Source: Victivallales bacterium
Lineage (GTDB): Bacteria; Verrucomicrobiota; Lentisphaeria; Victivallales; Victivallaceae
Length of the DNA: 64,000 bases
Assembly (NCBI GenBank): GCA_963676655.2
Contig: CAXXKX010000005.1
Location: forward strand, 171,955-235,954
Reading direction: 5' to 3'
Position numbers and translations under genes: made by a program
Notes under the pieces: model-generated
What the model was told of the DNA's origin: nothing
The model's database searches: none
Seen by the model: only the letters and a program-made list of their open reading frames with translations
In this document: piece by piece, positions 37,356-50,696 of the stretch
How the letters are laid out: the number at the start of each line of letters is the position of its first letter
How positions within the stretch are numbered: position 1 is the first letter of the stretch

Positions 37356-38228
37356 TTACTTACTGAATCTGTCCATTGCTTCCGGGTTTCTCCAGATACA
37401 TTCCACGCGCTTCTGTGCGCGCTTGCTGGCGCCTTCACCGAGCAATTTGTTTGTCCTGGTTCGACCAGCGGCGGAACAAACGACATCGACGGTCTGAAGG
37501 TTCCATTTTGCGGCTTTCAACGGCTTGTAAAGCTCGTTATCATACCCTGACAACATAACGGCGCCGTCATACTTTAAAAGCGCCTGGATTAGCTCCTCAT
37601 GGTCCTCGTTCTTTAGTTCATGATCGTAACCGCCAGCCTTGCGCACGCCGGCCACATAAGGCGGGTCACAATACGCGAGCCAGCCCGATCCGGAATAGCG
37701 TTTCAATACGCATCGCCAGTCGTCACACTCGATCTGAACCCGCTGCATACGCTCATGAACCTTTGGCAGATTATCAAAGCTGTTAATCCAATTTGAACAA
37801 TTTGCGGCCATTCCCCGATTACTGCTTGAGACATTCGTTCCCCAATGATTTCCGAACTGTCCTCCAAAGCATTGTCTTATGACCACATACCACCGCACAG
37901 CCTGTTCAACCGGGTCATGAATCCCGGCCCAGGAACGTAAATATTCCTCGTAAAGCTCGCGACTGACGGGGTGCAGACTAGCCCTGGCCATGAACTTACC
38001 GAACATCTCGACGTCGCTGATCACGCGGAAGAAGTTGACCACGCCGCGATTGACGTCATTGTATACTTCCACGTCGACCGGCTCTTTACTTATAAGGATA
38101 GAAGCTCCGCCGCCGAACGGCTCGACGTAATTAGTGTGCGGCGGCAGCAGCTCCAGCAGCTTATTTTTGATTTTCGGGGCTCCTTTGCCTCCGAACCAGG
38201 GGAATGGTGCACGTGTTTTACTTGGCAT
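37356..38228 (-). CDS. N6-adenine DNA methyltransferase, Dam (D12-class) family
   Basis: 290 aa. FPWFGGKG, EPFGGGASI (SAM site) and catalytic DPPY (YCDPPYV). Confidence 0.85.
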   Translation of the reverse strand: MPSKTRAPFPWFGGKGAPKIKNKLLELLPPHTNYVEPFGGGASILISKEPVDVEVYNDVNRGVVNFFRVISDVEMFGKFMARASLHPVSRELYEEYLRSWAGIHDPVEQAVRWYVVIRQCFGGQFGNHWGTNVSSSNRGMAANCSNWINSFDNLPKVHERMQRVQIECDDWRCVLKRYSGSGWLAYCDPPYVAGVRKAGGYDHELKNEDHEELIQALLKYDGAVMLSGYDNELYKPLKAAKWNLQTVDVVCSAAGRTRTNKLLGEGASKRAQKRVECIWRNPEAMDRFSK

Positions 38229-40140: not shown

Positions 40141-40491
40141 TTATAAATTCTCTTTGTTAATTATCGGCCCGATAGTATCGGCCCACGGATCAGAATTATC
40201 ATAGTCCTTACTTTGACCGCCGTTCCACGGCCTCATCCCTGGGTAGTTTTTCGGTTGAATGCCGGTCCCGCCATACCAGTTTTTATTTTTGTGGGAGCCG
40301 GGTTCCGAACGGCGAATAATTCGACTTTTCGGCCGCAATTCCGCGAGACGCTGATCCAGCGCGGCCAGAACCTCTGTCCGAGGGATGCGACGGTCCTTTT
40401 CCAACGCATAATACCGTGCGCATTCGATCCCCGACATGTTTTTGATTTTTGCAATCAATTCAGCTTTTTTCTCTGGCATTTTATACTCCAA
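40141..40491 (-). CDS. Hypothetical early protein carrying an in-frame GC-hairpin repeat
   Basis: 116 aa. Residues IRRSEPGSH are encoded by repeat copy 40291-40316. Confidence 0.45.
   Translation of the reverse strand: MEYKMPEKKAELIAKIKNMSGIECARYYALEKDRRIPRTEVLAALDQRLAELRPKSRIIRRSEPGSHKNKNWYGGTGIQPKNYPGMRPWNGGQSKDYDNSDPWADTIGPIINKENL
40291..40316 (-). repeat. GC hairpin element type a
   Basis: Plus strand GTGGGAGCCGGGTTCCGAACGGCGAA, inside ORF 40141..40491. Confidence 0.75.
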
Positions 40492-40900: not shown

Positions 40901-41131
40901 TTACCTCCTGTTATGAATTAACTTTTCTATCAAAATGATAGCTTTTTCACCATATTTTTTTTGAATATGTTCTTTGAGAGAAACATTGTCAGCAACCTTC
41001 TGCCATGAATCAAACTTAACAATGTCAAAACCTGTATAGAAGTCCCAAAAGTTAAGAAGTCTAAGCCCGAAAAGACGTTGAAATTCAATGCAGTTTGATA
41101 AGTAACATTCTTTTACTTCATTAAGAATCAT
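40901..41131 (-). CDS. Hypothetical small protein
   Basis: 76 aa. ATGA overlap with the recombinase stop. Confidence 0.45.
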   Translation of the reverse strand: MILNEVKECYLSNCIEFQRLFGLRLLNFWDFYTGFDIVKFDSWQKVADNVSLKEHIQKKYGEKAIILIEKLIHNRR

Positions 41132-41724
41132 TGCATTTCCTTTACGAAGCTCGATACCGTTAGGCGATGCACTTTTAGGACTTTAGCGATTTTGGAAAAC
41201 GATATTCCTGCATCAAGCATTTCTTTTATTTTTTTCTCTTTGCCGGTCAATTTTCTCTTTGACGATTTACTACCTTTAGGACGGCCCAAAATAACCCCTT
41301 CGGCTTTTTTTCTTGCAAGGGCTTCTTTGGTTCTTTGCGATATTAGATTTCTTTCGATTTCAGCGGCGAGTCCAAAAGCAAATGCCAGAACTTTTGAACT
41401 GATATCATCGCCCAGGCGAAAATTATCTTTGATTGTCCAAATTTGAATTTCTTTCCGCATGCAGCGATTTAATAATGACATTATCATCAAAAGGTTTCTG
41501 CCAAGACGCGAAAGTTCTGTACATATCAGAATGTCATCTTTTTTCATTCGATTGATAAACTTTCCAAGTTCGCGTTTATCTACTTCTTTTGTGCCGGAAA
41601 TAGTTTCTTCTATCCAACGGTCGACAATCAGGCCTTTTCGTTCGCAGAATTCATTAATTTCAAATCTTTGATTCTCAACCGTCTGCTTATCGGTACTGAC
41701 TCTGATATATCCGTAAATCATCAT
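41128..41724 (-). CDS. Serine recombinase (resolvase/invertase family)
   Basis: 198 aa. Catalytic-Ser motif YGYIRVSTDKQ and SRLGRN. C-terminal HTH ISFSKIAKVLKVHRLTVSSF. Confidence 0.9.
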   Translation of the reverse strand: MMIYGYIRVSTDKQTVENQRFEINEFCERKGLIVDRWIEETISGTKEVDKRELGKFINRMKKDDILICTELSRLGRNLLMIMSLLNRCMRKEIQIWTIKDNFRLGDDISSKVLAFAFGLAAEIERNLISQRTKEALARKKAEGVILGRPKGSKSSKRKLTGKEKKIKEMLDAGISFSKIAKVLKVHRLTVSSFVKEMQ

Positions 41725-43119: not shown

Positions 43120-44139
43120 TTATTCTTCGAGTGCCTTTGTTTGGAGACCGACGCACCTGCTGCAAAGATTGGGCTCAACCCAACTGCAACCGTCCGGACA
43201 GGCGTTAAGGTCGGTACAACCGCAAACCCGGCAAACCCACTCGGAACTCAACGCGCCCAACTGTTCAAGCAGGGTTGTTTTACGCTGGTCATACTCTTCG
43301 TATTGCTCATCGAATTCGGCGTCGAGAATCTGTAATTTCTCGAAGATAGTGCGCTGCTCCTCGTTGAAGTTTTCTTCTGTAACCACGCAGAGACCTTTGA
43401 ACCGTAAACTTTCCTCATCTATTTCGCAATCGCCTTCATGCTCGTTTACTTCCAGCAGCTCGCAAACGCTTTGCAGCGCCATGAACGCGACCTCGCTCAT
43501 TTTCAGCTCCATCGGCCGGAACGCGACCGTATGAACCCTTTTCTCGTCCACGCTGCTGTCGATGATCCCGTTTTCCAGGATAAGGCGTAACACGTCCTCC
43601 TGGCTCGGCTCCAGTAACTCCAAGGGGCCGGAATCGCTTTCCTGCTCCTCCTCATCGATCAGCGGCGTTGGCTTCGGTTTGATAAAGAACGCCGTGCGGT
43701 ATGCCGGATCAGCGTGGATTCCGTTCAGGTCGGTACCGAGGTATTCGGCTTCGGCCAGTCCGGGCCAGATGCCGGTCCAGCGTGCGAATTTCTTATCATG
43801 GTCCTCGCAGTCACAGGAAAGACGCTGACCGCCGCAAACGCTGCACTGTTCGATATCGCAGCCGTCCTCATGCTCGAATCCCGGTTCGATTCCGCAATCC
43901 GGACAAAGCCCGATTTCTTTCTTTTTTTCCTTTTTCCCGTCCAGGTATTCAAGTTCCTTCCAACGCTTTTCGATTTGAGCCTTGCGTGAAGCATATTCTT
44001 CTTGAACTTTCTCTGTATCATCCAGATTTGAATAATCTTTTAGCTCATTGTCGTACCATGCCTCAAGCTCTTTCAACTCCACCAGCAGCTCCCGCCGCTC
44101 GTTCATATCATCGTTTATCTTGCTCATAATTGAACTCAT
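43120..44139 (-). CDS. Cys-rich (two zinc-module) acidic early protein, hypothetical
   Basis: 339 aa. [30 protein letters not shown] and C-terminal [27 protein letters not shown]. Confidence 0.55.
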
Positions 44140-44167
44140 TTCTTTTTACTTTCTTTGGTAGTTTATT

Positions 44168-44225
44168 GTGGGAGCCGGGCTCCGACCGGCGAAAAGGCCG
44201 GACGAGACGTCCGCGCTCCCAGGGG
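44168..44225 (-). repeat. GC hairpin elements, types a + b composite (intergenic B / 339-aa gene)
   Basis: GTGGGAGCCGGGCTCCGACCGGCGAA aa GGCCGGACGAGACGTCCGCGCTCCCAGGGG. Confidence 0.8.
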
Positions 44226-44255
44226 TGAAGTTGGCGCTCGGCGCGCCATGTGGAA

Positions 44256-45290
44256 TTATTTTTCGGGCCAGATACCGCCTGAGTTTCGCCAGTCAACCGC
44301 GACTCGCAATGCTTTGGCGTCAAGCTCTTGGCCTTTTTGGCGAGCCCAGTCTGACGCACGTTCTAAATCTTCAAACAACGTACGCAATTTACCCTCGTCG
44401 GAATTTGCAATATTATATGCATAATCGACTAATTTCTGAGGAGGGCTCGGGCGGAATGATGAGACAGCGGCGATTATTTCGTCCATCAATACTTTATCAG
44501 GGATCTTAACCGTAAATTTATTTCTACCGCAAAACTGCTCAAAGAATTTTTTAAGCTGACCGTGAGTAATCATTTCAAGATAAACATCGGTAAAAATAAA
44601 GACAACTGAACATTTATCGATATCATAAAAATCGCGCATTAATTCGATTGGAATCCCTCCTCGCCCATCTTTCGGAATTAGGAATCCCGCCTCATCTGCA
44701 ATTATTACGTTCCGGTGATCCAGCGCGTCATGCAACTTCATTTCAAGCTCTGGAGCCGGGCGGTGATGTATCCCTATTCCACACGCCTTGCATAGGTACT
44801 GGGCCAATGTCTTTCGAGTACAACTTGATGGGACTCTCAAGAACTTTGCCCGGCCATGGTTGTTAGCTTTAGCCCAAGCTTCTGCTGTTGTTGTCTTACT
44901 GCGCCCGGTGGGGCCGACAATAAAAACCAAAGAATGAAAATCCCTGGCATAATTCAACGCTTCGACAATTTTTTCTGTTACAACCGTCCGGACAATTCCC
45001 GCCCCGCGAAGCTCATCTTTCCGTATCCGTATTATGGCCTGAATTAGCGGTGAAATTTCAGGCTCGGTTGCCCGGCCGGTCATTGCCAGCCTTACTTCTT
45101 CGTAACTCAAGCCAGTCGCTTTTTCAATTTTTCTTTGAGAGGCACCCAAACTGTTATGGATATACCCCCAGAACCACTCTAGATGCTCTTGAGCGGTTTC
45201 GGTGTAGTTCTGAATGCCTACTTTGAGCTGATTCAACCCGAAAGACAGATTATCCTGCCTAACGCCGTTTATTCCTTCTGTTTTACTCAT
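44256..45290 (-). CDS. AAA+ ATPase, MuB/TniB-like transposition protein
   Basis: 344 aa. Walker A GPTGRSKTT and Walker B VIIADEAGF. 8-nt overlap with the transposase stop. Confidence 0.75.
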   Translation of the reverse strand: MSKTEGINGVRQDNLSFGLNQLKVGIQNYTETAQEHLEWFWGYIHNSLGASQRKIEKATGLSYEEVRLAMTGRATEPEISPLIQAIIRIRKDELRGAGIVRTVVTEKIVEALNYARDFHSLVFIVGPTGRSKTTTAEAWAKANNHGRAKFLRVPSSCTRKTLAQYLCKACGIGIHHRPAPELEMKLHDALDHRNVIIADEAGFLIPKDGRGGIPIELMRDFYDIDKCSVVFIFTDVYLEMITHGQLKKFFEQFCGRNKFTVKIPDKVLMDEIIAAVSSFRPSPPQKLVDYAYNIANSDEGKLRTLFEDLERASDWARQKGQELDAKALRVAVDWRNSGGIWPEK

Positions 45291-47295
45291 AATCGTTGAA
45301 CCTCCTGTTGATCATGAATTTGTTGAAGTCTTCTATATCTTCGGTCGAAGAGTCCGGAACGTCCGAAATCTTCCCCGTAACGATTTCATTCATCTCCGCC
45401 AGTTCGGCGTCGCGTTTATCTTCGCGAAATTCGATTCGCCGGTCCAGGGCGGAAGCCGCATCTTCTCCGGGAACGCCGGTCGCCAGTCCGGCATTGCATT
45501 TCCCTGGCAGCGCTTTGTAATGATTGAATTCATGGCTCGCGCCCTTGACGCTCCTGGAACTTCCGACCTTGACGATGTCGAAATCTTCCGGCAGTTGCAG
45601 CAGCTCTTGAACGCTTAAAAGATGTAAACCACCAGTTAACTCGTCAAGTATCGTATACCCGGCTTTAAGCTGGCCGCGATGTTCTTTCATCTGCTCGCTG
45701 ATCCGCTGCCGGTCCTCGTCGCTTTTCGCCAGGGCTTTGCATTTTTCCCGCGTTTCGCATTTTCCGATCGGCTGGCCATCCGGGGTGAAAACAAACACAT
45801 GCTCATCGGTCAGCATGGAAGTTTTAATCATTACTTTTTCGCCAAAATGATTAAGCAGGCAATTGCCGTAATAGTAGGTTTTATCGACGCTGACGCAGAA
45901 GCCGCGCCCGACCGTCCTGAGACTCGCTAACGGCATCAGGAACGCCGCGAACAGCTCTTCAACGGTCAATGGCGCCGCGTGGTAGCGTTCGCCGTGGTCG
46001 AACGCCGTCCGGGGCGTCTGGCCGCCGACAATCTCGCCGTTATTCTGCTGATCGTGATACAGTTCGATCCATTTGCTGAAAGCCTGGCAGAACTGCTCCA
46101 GCGTCGGCAGATGTTCAGGATGCTTGCGGAAGTGCTCGGCCGCGTCCGGCCGCGCTCCCGGCGTGTTCCCCAGGTAAGCGGCAAAATACTTGTCAAATTT
46201 ATCCGCGTGTTCTTTGAAGCCGCGTTCGACCGTTTTGGCGCGGCCATTGTAAGGCAGCGAAGTAATTACTTTAATTCCCAGGCTTTTCAGGATCGAATGT
46301 TCATGCCCGTCGAATTCAACCGGCTCGGAAAACCCCTGTGCCTTGAAGTCTTTGCCGTTGTCGTTATACAGATAACCGGGACGCCCGTGCCGGGCGATTC
46401 CCCAGGCCAGGCCGTTCCGGATCGTCGCGTTGTTCGGACTTTCGGCCTGAATCTGCCAGCTGGTATAATACCAGCTTTTCGCGTCCATAAAAGCGCAGAG
46501 CCAGGGACGCGTCGCTTTCCACTCGCCGTTCTCATCCAGCACCTTGATGTAGCAGTCGAATACCCGGTGGTCGCTGATCCAGATTTCATTTGCCCGGACC
46601 CCGCTCCAGTCGCGGTGGATATATCCGACGATATGATTTTTGACGTATTCCTCGCCGTGCCTTGCCAGCGCGACCGCGATCGGCGACAGCTGCTTTACCC
46701 GGTATCGGGTCTGACCGATTGACGGCACTTCCGCGAACGGGTTCTGATCCCTCATCCGGCATGATGCCAGGCGGTAACACTCCTCGACTGACAGCTTGTT
46801 CTGATTCAGATAAAACGCGTTGAAAAATGTCCAGAATTCGGCGTCGCCTCTCGCTGCCTGGACGCCGGTATTGTAATTGTCGACCAGTACATTCCGGTTG
46901 TCCCAATTGTATTCCCTGCCGATTTTACCGAGTTTCCGGAGCCACGCCCGGCAATTATTGTAAGTCAACTGTGACCGGCCGTTCTGGCCGCCGTTTTTCA
47001 GTTTTGGGAACGACCGGATATTCAGCCTGGCAACTTCTTCGCAGCACTTTTCCATTTTCCAGCCGGTCGTCGCTTTTTTCTCAACACAAAGTTTGCAGAA
47101 AAGCCAGCGCTCATCACGCTTCAAACGCTGATCGACGGTCAATTCGTTTGACTCTTTTATCGACCGCGCGATCGCTCCGCTGCTCACTTTCATAATGTGG
47201 GAGCCGGGCTCCGAACGGCGAATCGTTACCGGCGCCAATACCTCCGCCCCGCCGGTTCCGGTTAGTAAATTCTCTTTTAGTGCTGCCAGTCCCAT
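45283..47295 (-). CDS. DDE transposase, Mu A-like (integrase-core fold)
   Basis: 670 aa. Candidate D-D-E in WISDHRVFD, LYNDNGKDF, AKTVERGF. Alternative start ATG 47193 (MKVSSG) lies just after repeat copy 47197-47222, which is otherwise translated as IRRSEPGSH. Confidence 0.8.
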   Translation of the reverse strand: MGLAALKENLLTGTGGAEVLAPVTIRRSEPGSHIMKVSSGAIARSIKESNELTVDQRLKRDERWLFCKLCVEKKATTGWKMEKCCEEVARLNIRSFPKLKNGGQNGRSQLTYNNCRAWLRKLGKIGREYNWDNRNVLVDNYNTGVQAARGDAEFWTFFNAFYLNQNKLSVEECYRLASCRMRDQNPFAEVPSIGQTRYRVKQLSPIAVALARHGEEYVKNHIVGYIHRDWSGVRANEIWISDHRVFDCYIKVLDENGEWKATRPWLCAFMDAKSWYYTSWQIQAESPNNATIRNGLAWGIARHGRPGYLYNDNGKDFKAQGFSEPVEFDGHEHSILKSLGIKVITSLPYNGRAKTVERGFKEHADKFDKYFAAYLGNTPGARPDAAEHFRKHPEHLPTLEQFCQAFSKWIELYHDQQNNGEIVGGQTPRTAFDHGERYHAAPLTVEELFAAFLMPLASLRTVGRGFCVSVDKTYYYGNCLLNHFGEKVMIKTSMLTDEHVFVFTPDGQPIGKCETREKCKALAKSDEDRQRISEQMKEHRGQLKAGYTILDELTGGLHLLSVQELLQLPEDFDIVKVGSSRSVKGASHEFNHYKALPGKCNAGLATGVPGEDAASALDRRIEFREDKRDAELAEMNEIVTGKISDVPDSSTEDIEDFNKFMINRRFNDYE
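47197..47222 (-). repeat. GC hairpin element type a
   Basis: GTGGGAGCCGGGCTCCGAACGGCGAA, within the first 35 codons (or 5' UTR) of the transposase gene. Confidence 0.8.
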
Positions 47296-48153: not shown

Positions 48154-48666
48154 TTATTTTTTACTGCCCTGCTTCTTGGCTTGATCAATCAAGCTGCTGT
48201 CGACGCTGTAAAAACTTGAAGTGCCGCTATCGATTTCAACACCAGGAATACTCAAACCGTTTTTAACCGCCTCGCGTAAAGGTATCTTCATTACTGATTG
48301 TTCTGTTTTGATAAACTCAAACATTTCGTTGTCGACCAGGTATTGCAGAAGCTCTTTTTCGTTTTTAATTTCCAGGTTGGAGACATCCCGCATCCCATAT
48401 TTACCGAATGGAGTTACCCGTGATCGTGGCTTCTCAAATTCGTCCGGGTGCGCCAGGACATAGGCGTTAAGTTTTGCGGCACGATCAGCAATAATACTCC
48501 CAAGATTATCCTTATGGGCTGTCGCTAAGCCTTTATAGCGATTTATCTCTCTTTTGCATATTGCCAGCTTCAGGGTTAGTTCAACCTCTAAGTTGGCTAT
48601 TTCCTCCAGCAGCTGATCCGCCTGTTTCTGACTCATCTTCCTGGTGTCAGACATTCTCGTTACCAT
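48154..48666 (-). CDS. Mu Gam-like host-nuclease inhibitor
   Basis: N-terminal coiled coil (QADQLLEEIANLEVELTLKLAICKREINRYK). C-terminal ..KPRSRVTPFGKYGMRDVSNLEIKNEKELLQYL..FIKTEQSV is Gam-family-like. ATG 48666 follows AAAGGA. The track start 48711 lies inside the leader repeat. Confidence 0.55.
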   Translation of the reverse strand: MVTRMSDTRKMSQKQADQLLEEIANLEVELTLKLAICKREINRYKGLATAHKDNLGSIIADRAAKLNAYVLAHPDEFEKPRSRVTPFGKYGMRDVSNLEIKNEKELLQYLVDNEMFEFIKTEQSVMKIPLREAVKNGLSIPGVEIDSGTSSFYSVDSSLIDQAKKQGSKK

Positions 48667-48687
48667 TTCGTTATCCTTTCTTTTTTC

Positions 48688-48758
48688 AGTCACGAATTTC
48701 ACTAATTTCACTAATTTTTTTTAAAAACCTATTCGTGTTATTCGTGCGATTTGTGGCT
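48688..48758 (-). repeat. Triple-heptad leader element, full hairpin copy A (upstream of gam-like gene)
   Basis: Plus strand: agtCACGAATttCACTAATttCACTAAT - loop - ATTCGTGttATTCGTGcgATTTGTGGCT. 21 nt to ATG 48666. Confidence 0.8.
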
Positions 48759-49624: not shown

Positions 49625-50227
49625 TTATTCATCACCGGCCCCCTTTCCGGCTCGCCGCGCTTCATTATTCCGGCGTAGTTCGTCTTTCCACGATTTGTCA
49701 GGGTCCTGCCAGCCAAGTTTTTCGGCAAATAACAGACGAAACGGTTTACCGGCTTTACCGTTAGCGGCAAAGCTTACGGTTCCGGAGCTCGAGTCTAAAG
49801 CTTCAGCCAAAGCTTGTTGATTAATGCCAAGTTCAGCGTAAATTTTCTTAATGGAATCTTCCACGTTTAAGCCGGTTAAATCAACCTTGTTTTTGATCTC
49901 TTCGGCAGTGAGCCTGATGCCCTTTTCCGGGCCAAATTTTTCTCGCTTCTTCGGAGGCTTTCCCGGCGCCCCTTTTTTGGTTTCGCCGTTCGGAGTCCGG
50001 CTCCCACTTTTGGGGCTTTCCCCTGGGAGCGCGGACGTCTCGTCCGCATTCGCCGGTCGGAGCCCGGCTCCCACGGTTTCATTGTCTTTACTTCCTCCTT
50101 GGATATTGCCTCTTTGTTCCAGCGTTCCGCTGGCCTCTCCGCTTTGCTCCGTCCGTGTTGGATATTGGATATTCAATCCGAAGATTTGCCTCAACTCTTC
50201 CATCGACCCTTCAAATTTGAATCTCAT
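49625..50227 (-). CDS. Early protein with C-terminal HTH and a repeat-derived linker
   Basis: 200 aa. HTH-like IYAELGINQQALAEALDSSSGTVS. Residues VGAGLRPANADETSALPGESPKSGSRTPNGE are encoded by the 93-bp composite repeat 49982-50074. Confidence 0.55.
   Translation of the reverse strand: MRFKFEGSMEELRQIFGLNIQYPTRTEQSGEASGTLEQRGNIQGGSKDNETVGAGLRPANADETSALPGESPKSGSRTPNGETKKGAPGKPPKKREKFGPEKGIRLTAEEIKNKVDLTGLNVEDSIKKIYAELGINQQALAEALDSSSGTVSFAANGKAGKPFRLLFAEKLGWQDPDKSWKDELRRNNEARRAGKGAGDE
49982..50074 (+). repeat. GC hairpin composite a-b-a (93 bp) inside ORF 49625..50227
   Basis: TTCGCCGTTCGGAGTCCGGCTCCCAC ... CCCCTGGGAGCGCGGACGTCTCGTCCGC a TTCGCCGGTCGGAGCCCGGCTCCCAC. Confidence 0.8.
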
Positions 50228-50367
50228 GCTGCTTTACCTCCTGAGTTTGGTTTGTAATATCTCCGGTCCTTAAATTCCTGCTGCTTGCCGCGATTCCAAT
50301 TTGCCACCGGCCGGAAGTACCCGCAGACGCGACTGTATACTTCTGTTTTCGCTCCGCATTTATTCAT
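50224..50367 (-). CDS. 47-aa NrdD C-terminal (glycyl-radical domain)-like mini-protein
   Basis: MNKCGAKTEVYSRVCGYFRPVANWNRGKQQEFKDRRYYKPNSGGKAA. ATGA overlaps at both ends and GGAGG 7 nt upstream. The RVCGY...WN.GK..E..DR pattern is as in class III RNR C-termini. Below the track cutoff. Confidence 0.6.
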   Translation of the reverse strand: MNKCGAKTEVYSRVCGYFRPVANWNRGKQQEFKDRRYYKPNSGGKAA

Positions 50368-50696
50368 TGATTACCTCCATTTTCCTGCCACGAATCGCAC
50401 GAATTGCACGAATCATTTTTTGAAAGTTTTTTTAAGTTTTTATACAGCTCGTCAAAGTCCTTGCCGGACGCGACGACCATGCCGCTCTCTTTCACTTTTA
50501 CCCCGTCCGGCCCCATGACCAGCGCGACCGTAACCTTGCCATCGACGGCGGCCTCAAGCAGCGCATTGACGATCGCGCCGATCCAGGCCAACTCGGTCAT
50601 CTCATCTTGCTCTATCTGCTCCAGCCATAAATTATTGATTCTGTCTACTTCCGCCTGGTCCATTTCTATTCCCTTTTCGTGGTTAAGTTTGTACAT
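50364..50696 (-). CDS. Hypothetical early protein
   Basis: 110 aa. The last ~17 aa (NDSCNSCDSWQENGGNQ) are encoded by leader half-element 50386-50413. Confidence 0.5.
   Translation of the reverse strand: MYKLNHEKGIEMDQAEVDRINNLWLEQIEQDEMTELAWIGAIVNALLEAAVDGKVTVALVMGPDGVKVKESGMVVASGKDFDELYKNLKKLSKNDSCNSCDSWQENGGNQ
50386..50413 (-). repeat. Leader element, 3'-arm-only copy E
   Basis: Plus strand: tgCCACGAATcgCACGAATtgCACGAAT. 18 nt to ATG 50367 of the NrdD-like mini-ORF. Confidence 0.8.

Follow-up and report, generated by a model that had tools for sequence, protein, structure and literature searches.

A Mu-like prophage early operon encodes a putative free-standing glycyl-radical segment of anaerobic ribonucleotide reductase

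Why would a Mu-like prophage carry a gene for little more than the glycyl-radical tip of an anaerobic (class III) ribonucleotide reductase (RNR)? We address this question for a 47-amino-acid (aa) open reading frame (ORF) at positions 50224 to 50367 of a 64-kb stretch of DNA from a Victivallales bacterium, the whole of which is referred to here as the window. The ORF, here the mini-gene, is present with the sequence given in the original prediction and lies on the minus strand, which that prediction did not specify. As had been described, ATGA overlaps join it to both neighbors on the same strand: its start to the stop of a 110-aa ORF on its 5′ side (50364 to 50696; no Pfam match above the cutoff) and its stop to the start of a 200-aa ORF on its 3′ side (49625 to 50227; weak regulator-like PHROG match). 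The Shine-Dalgarno (SD)-like motif GGAGG was read from the sequence upstream of the ATG (50374 to 50378, minus strand), with a spacer of 6 nt rather than the 7 nt originally stated; the spacing is identical in a related prophage (L023).

The mini-gene product matches the C-terminal end of the Pfam NRDD family (PF13597; 45 bits against a cutoff of 26.2 bits; E value, 8e-12; profile positions 526 to 562 of 562), TIGR02487 (E value, 3e-11; positions 545 to 579), five other NrdD models in an NCBIfam search, and phrog_487 in PHROGs (E value, 3e-5). These profile searches, which had been proposed as a check, bear out the earlier reading of the ORF as the glycyl-radical segment of a class III RNR. 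The Pfam, NCBIfam, and PHROGs matches were to NRDD families only, with no homology of the pyruvate formate-lyase (PFL) type. An HMM trained solely on 35 intact NrdD tails served as a chance control: the mini-gene frame scored 82.7 bits, and the runner-up among 1173 window frames reached 7.7 bits. Direct matches to solved NrdD structures were weak (E values, 0.03 to 0.55), and in the weak match to Prevotella copri NrdD, G16 of the mini-protein aligns with the radical glycine, Gly711. This residue, in the glycyl-radical loop, is present in 29 of 29 aligned small proteins; the aromatic residue after it and the Cys are also retained. The Cys, C4, is the last Cys of the zinc ribbon, and a helix and tail follow the loop. 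Bounded by its stop at 47 aa, the ORF has no catalytic barrel with a finger-loop Cys on the same chain, and with one Cys it has no four-ligand zinc ribbon of its own. It resembles a small subunit in beginning at the second Cys of a cut CxxC, in having its own start and SD motif, and in falling within 40 to 60 aa. The fold predicted for the mini-protein alone (pLDDT, 66.7) has a hairpin at residues 9 to 20 and a helix at residues 21 to 31, and it gave no Foldseek match at an E value of ≤0.001. We regard 50224 to 50367 as confirmed as a real gene, predicted to encode a free-standing NrdD glycyl-radical segment.

The mini-gene belongs to a Mu-like early operon. Pfam matches on the same strand include a Mu Gam-like protein (48154 to 48711; PF07352, 67.8 bits), a MuA-like transposase (45283 to 47295; PF09299 and PF09039), an AAA_22 ATPase labeled MuB-like from its position (44256 to 45290; PF13401), and GemA, with terminase, portal, protease, and gpT encoded on the opposite strand. 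The prophage extends approximately from 37 kb of the window to 13 kb beyond the window end. The early operon has, at its far end, a serine resolvase/invertase (41128 to 41724; PF00239) and a DNA-methylase-like ORF judged by eye (37356 to 38228). Short peptides are repeated across unrelated ORFs at 40141 to 40491, 44108 to 44359, 45283 to 47295 (at the MuA N terminus), and 49625 to 50227, which suggests that a small repeat may have been inserted in frame. In a promoter/terminator scan, promoter-like sites were at chance level (8 versus 6.4).

No NrdD barrel was found within the 64-kb window, and the sole barrel of the host genome (G000) is on contig C3. Five NRDD matches in that genome comprise one barrel (profile positions 1 to 525) and four small pieces (525 to 562). 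The barrel ORF (G000:C3:1552328-1554337) is 669 aa long, has an ATP cone and the finger-loop motif SMCCR, and ends just past CxxH...CP without a Gly loop, so that nrdD is split inside the zinc-ribbon CxxC. A separate 49-aa gene (G000:C3:1554424) begins 86 nt past the barrel stop, and nrdG is next, from about position 1554680 of C3. The product of this operon gene shares 74% identity with the mini-protein, which begins exactly at the host split point and is identical to the host small subunit at 29 of 35 core positions. The barrel scores above the PRK08270 and TIGR02487 cutoffs and the activase above the NrdG2 cutoff; the host thus encodes both a Gly-less barrel and NrdG. The original prediction had called for a check of the host for nrdD and nrdG, and both were found, nrdD as a split gene. 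Its suggestion that the host relies on NrdD alone for deoxynucleoside triphosphates (dNTPs) does not hold, as a class II NrdJ above the TIGR02504 cutoff is encoded. No one-chain NrdD was found in the host genome. Two further small copies in the host lie in a separate prophage-like element whose neighbors resemble the AAA_24/DUF669/RusA/helicase module of relatives.

The region 5′ of the host split nrdD operon has an NrdR-box-like palindrome that fits the consensus perfectly (L006:6164-6178), and the 64-kb window has no such site at ≤2 mismatches. Two palindromes resembling the same consensus, with one mismatch each, precede nrdJ (L239:6819-6866). When the two profiles are placed on P. copri NrdD (8P23), the barrel match runs to chain residue 700 and the peptide match picks up at 701 (the peptide match alone is weak; E value, 0.26). 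The class III RNR of the host lineage is, as predicted from its genes, a two-chain enzyme made of a large barrel and a small subunit of about 50 aa, and the prophage mini-gene is best read as a putative extra copy of that small subunit sited in an early operon.

The split is widespread among relatives. A search of 41 genomes gave 29 with a split nrdD, 7 with an uninterrupted gene only, and 5 with no barrel; 28 of the split loci were extracted and inspected, and one (G007) is known from the search table alone. A one-chain NrdD is additionally present in 6 of the 29. The split is also found in the Desulfuromonadales, the order of G041: among 51 genomes, 48 had a match, none of them uninterrupted and full length, with 3 of the 48 too fragmentary to judge. 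Across 59 split loci, a set that leaves out one split of a second type and four fragments, the Cys of the small gene is kept in all 59, an SD-like motif (loose pattern) is present in 57, and the small gene begins 5 to 252 nt past the barrel stop in all three frames (19, 14, and 26 loci). The same break point in all 59 loci, the variable gaps, and the use of all three frames led us to reject the idea that the host nrdD is a pseudogene or is broken by a frameshift from sequencing. A self-splicing intron or fixed ribosomal hop is unlikely, given a Cys-to-Cys distance that varies from 47 to 321 nt and a small gene with its own start. An alignment of 43 barrels shows no variation at residues C642, H645, C655, and P656. 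The single Cys of the small proteins had been viewed as a remnant of a zinc ribbon; it is instead invariant and aligned with the last zinc-ribbon ligand, and the other candidate ligands are on the barrel.

On a barrel tree of 85 rows, the host barrel nests within a Lentisphaerota clade, and the split label needs five changes, three of them forced by well-supported branches; gains and losses of the split are indistinguishable because the tree is unrooted. A single origin of the CxxC split, as one clade, was rejected (AU test, P = 0.00027), in a comparison chosen after the first tree that used quick LG+G4 and 19 split versus 16 intact rows picked from a larger set. Variant arrangements were also seen. 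A second type of split, which occurs in the phylum of G096 and is seen in L065 and L234 to L238, leaves a complete CxxC on the barrel and gives the small gene a helical N terminus. Two loci show apparent refusion: one inside the split clade, with the small-gene start Met kept between the two Cys residues (L059:1264-2682), and one with barrel and small part joined by a linker of about 27 aa (L204:1949-4201). In G023, two tandem small-gene copies lie directly 3′ of the barrel (L042:2838-3171).

Of the 29 relatives with a split nrdD, 14 have small-gene copies elsewhere than beside nrdD. Such copies are absent from all 12 other genomes (Fisher P = 0.003), 7 of which are the intact-only relatives (P = 0.03 against these 7); both tests are confounded by kinship and by differences among assemblies. 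Manual reading of the neighbors of 21 fetched free copies assigned 15 to phage or mobile elements, 3 to housekeeping genes, and 3 as unclear. The expectation that related prophages would keep the ORF was borne out by six other Mu-like loci, with the small gene near MuA, MuB, or Gam homologs. In Desulfuromonadia genomes, all five extra copies are among phage genes, four of them beside GemA. All 19 free copies from Lentisphaeria genomes score higher on PVC than on Desulfuromonadales small subunits, and 4 of 5 from Desulfuromonadia genomes score best on those of their own lineage, with reference sets (40 versus 16) biased toward PVC. Extra small genes also occur in nonphage neighborhoods in L010, L027, and L067 (mraZ/ftsW, rpsA/MFS, and purM, respectively) and, from ORF lists only, in L248 and L249; these five are possible host-encoded spares.

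Free copies are also common in viral data. Of the best 80 of 392 confirmed IMG/VR stretches, 75 were small ORFs standing free, which encode 63 distinct proteins, and 5 were intact NrdDs, with L138 reclassified by hand. Contexts of the 75 were the AAA_24/DUF669 module (43), Mu-like (3), other replication (3), a marker shared with a tail-side locus (8), and unclassified (18). Among 35 whole virus records drawn from the longer contigs of the best loci, 34 have the small piece only and no barrel; the exception is 14% complete, and all 13 records of at least 90% completeness have no barrel. In a GenBank phage collection, seven records matched, and the four opened gave three full-length NrdDs and one free C-terminal part, that of ANMV-1. 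This archaeal virus (GenBank accession number KP703175.1; L229:2677-3111) has a 144-aa "anaerobic RNR" that consists of a Cys-rich region and Gly loop only. In eight loci (L015:6439-6960 on the minus strand, L075, L080, L114, L133, L160, L169, and L172), the segment continues in frame into a hydrophobic stretch with a lipobox-like motif and then an unrelated tail of 110 to 140 aa, and it is placed like the N-region of a lipoprotein signal peptide.

The free copies are under purifying selection. Among 83 distinct copies, pN is below pS in 3403 of 3403 pairs, with median values of 0.20 and 0.87; in the 41 pairs that are not saturated, pN is 0.10 and pS is 0.36. The invariance of G16 among free copies is partly circular because they were collected by the Gly-loop motif.

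What would the phage gain? In our reading, the phage copy probably adds to the supply of the radical-carrying small subunit, which would be the sole part lost on damage in the split enzyme. The mini-protein would dock in the host barrel, where C4 would complete a Zn site begun by barrel residues C642, H645, and C655; with Zn ligands CxxxHx6CxxC in Thermotoga maritima NrdD (PMC4493059), an interchain Zn site is a reasonable expectation. Host NrdG2 would then install the radical on G16; NrdG is reported to do so on a Gly in the C-terminal domain, and this domain flips out to be activated (PMC12662201). Glycyl-radical enzymes are cut by oxygen at the radical Gly (PMC3019208), so that damage by O2 would cost only the 47-aa part, which could be replaced. 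The phage operon shows no NrdR-box match, and expression from it would keep more host barrels active and make more dNTPs available while the phage transposes replicatively, for a price of 144 bp. Several observations weigh against this extra-copy reading: the host already has its own small gene and two more prophage-borne copies, the lipoprotein-type fusions of some phage copies are not accounted for, and 3 of the 21 free copies of relatives are among housekeeping genes. Class III flux may also not limit phage replication, since the host has NrdJ. We hold as evenly balanced a broader scenario in which a cartridge with an interchain zinc clasp arose from the CxxC cut in several lineages and many unrelated temperate phages took the version of their own host to control or sustain dNTPs outside NrdR.

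The mini-protein might instead be a decoy or inhibitor that binds barrels or titrates NrdG, with lowered or deregulated activity and dNTP pools reshaped, for example, against competing phages. Small interface-mimicking peptides in early operons are generally known as a common phage takeover design, and many phage copies differ systematically from the host form at peptide position 8, where 45 of the 83 free copies have Cys and all 59 operon copies have Thr, Asn, or Val. A second Cys at this position could change Zn binding. The window copy, however, has the host-type Thr and the 29/35 core identity to the host small subunit, it retains the radical Gly, the next aromatic residue, and the Cys, and a replicating phage needs dNTPs, all of which make a decoy unlikely.

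A phage-specific role away from the barrel, as a radical or metal module for another phage protein or in a membrane-tethered form, would fit the eight lipobox-like fusions and the several unrelated gene contexts. We consider it improbable, as the Mu-like, AAA_24/DUF669, and tail-side contexts have no neighbor in common and the sequences follow the host small subunit by lineage. More doubtful still is the role first suggested, in which the peptide would act like YfiD and restore a one-chain NrdD that oxygen has cut at the radical Gly. For PFL, a precedent on a phage exists in T4 Y06I (PMC8683613), and four free-copy genomes have a one-chain NrdD in addition to the split form. The patch reading is not favored because a separate host operon gene supplies the segment that the barrel already lacks; in addition, the host has no one-chain NrdD, free copies are found in none of the seven intact-only relatives, and the peptide starts at the exact host split point. 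That the mini-gene is a neutral relic, a host fragment captured recently and without function, is largely refuted and the least probable account, for it is short but has its own SD motif and coupled start and stop, is kept in the six other Mu-like loci, and shows a pS of 0.82 (near saturation) and pN of 0.10 against the host gene and a pS of 0.33 and pN of 0.04 against the nearest prophage copy (L023 in G001; 9.5 synonymous differences over 29 sites and 4.5 nonsynonymous over 112).

If the cartridge scenario is true, the small subunit would be the first glycyl-radical subunit beyond PFL that can be exchanged, and its gene a phage metabolic gene in minimal form. Spare parts for glycyl-radical enzymes beyond PFL are described as not yet known in a 2026 review (PMC13450708) and likewise in PMC8683613. 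A search of open-access literature returned no description of a class III RNR cut at its zinc ribbon or of phage-borne tips. The split form would be easy to miss because large RNR phylogenies left out sequences of <400 aa (PMC9531940) and Gly-less barrels pass full-length cutoffs; annotation pipelines may also mislabel the small genes as fragments. With a barrel, a peptide of 47 to 49 aa, and NrdG, the spare-part question beyond PFL becomes directly testable with a synthetic peptide, and such a three-component system would offer a clean handle on target recognition and activation by NrdG.

Among the closest known systems are the single-chain NrdD enzymes that work with NrdG (T4, T. maritima 4COI/4U3E, P. 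copri 8P23, and Streptococcus thermophilus 9D3X), to whose zinc-ribbon end, Gly loop, and C-terminal helix the mini-protein is homologous. All the solved enzymes carry the glycyl-radical domain within one chain, whereas here it has a separate gene, cut inside CxxC, and the phage has the small part without barrel or activase. Phage RNR auxiliary metabolic genes also place an RNR gene beside replication functions (PMC3653736); those phages carry full nrdD and nrdG, in contrast to the radical-bearing tip only. The split phage nrdD genes listed in that source are interruptions by introns, inteins, or homing endonucleases or an unexplained three-piece nrdD (phiAS4), with no free-standing tips among them.

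Escherichia coli GrcA/YfiD and T4 Y06I (IPR011140) are likewise free-standing small Gly-loop proteins with a phage-borne copy and are described as spare parts of about 14 kDa that restore O2-cleaved PFL (PMC8683613). They have a PFL-type loop and 127 aa with a disordered N-terminal half, whereas the mini-protein has an RNR-type loop and 47 aa with no such half. Activation in trans by a host activase would be common to both. The partner of a GrcA-type protein is a cleaved full-length enzyme; that of the mini-protein would be a barrel made without the segment. Because the host operon gene encodes the same part, the small chain would be a permanent subunit that serves for more than repair. Judged from its sequence, the mini-protein is GrcA/YfiD/Y06I-like in its presumed working and is not a member of that family. 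The split class II enzyme NrdJa/NrdJb is also a two-chain RNR whose small chain bears the C-terminal part with the zinc finger (PMC9669993), but it uses class II chemistry with no protein radical, and NrdJb holds a whole IscU-like and zinc-finger unit. In split NrdD, unlike NrdJb, the zinc site itself would be shared between the chains, and the prophage mini-gene is a candidate, amenable to testing, for a glycyl-radical part beyond PFL that can be replaced.
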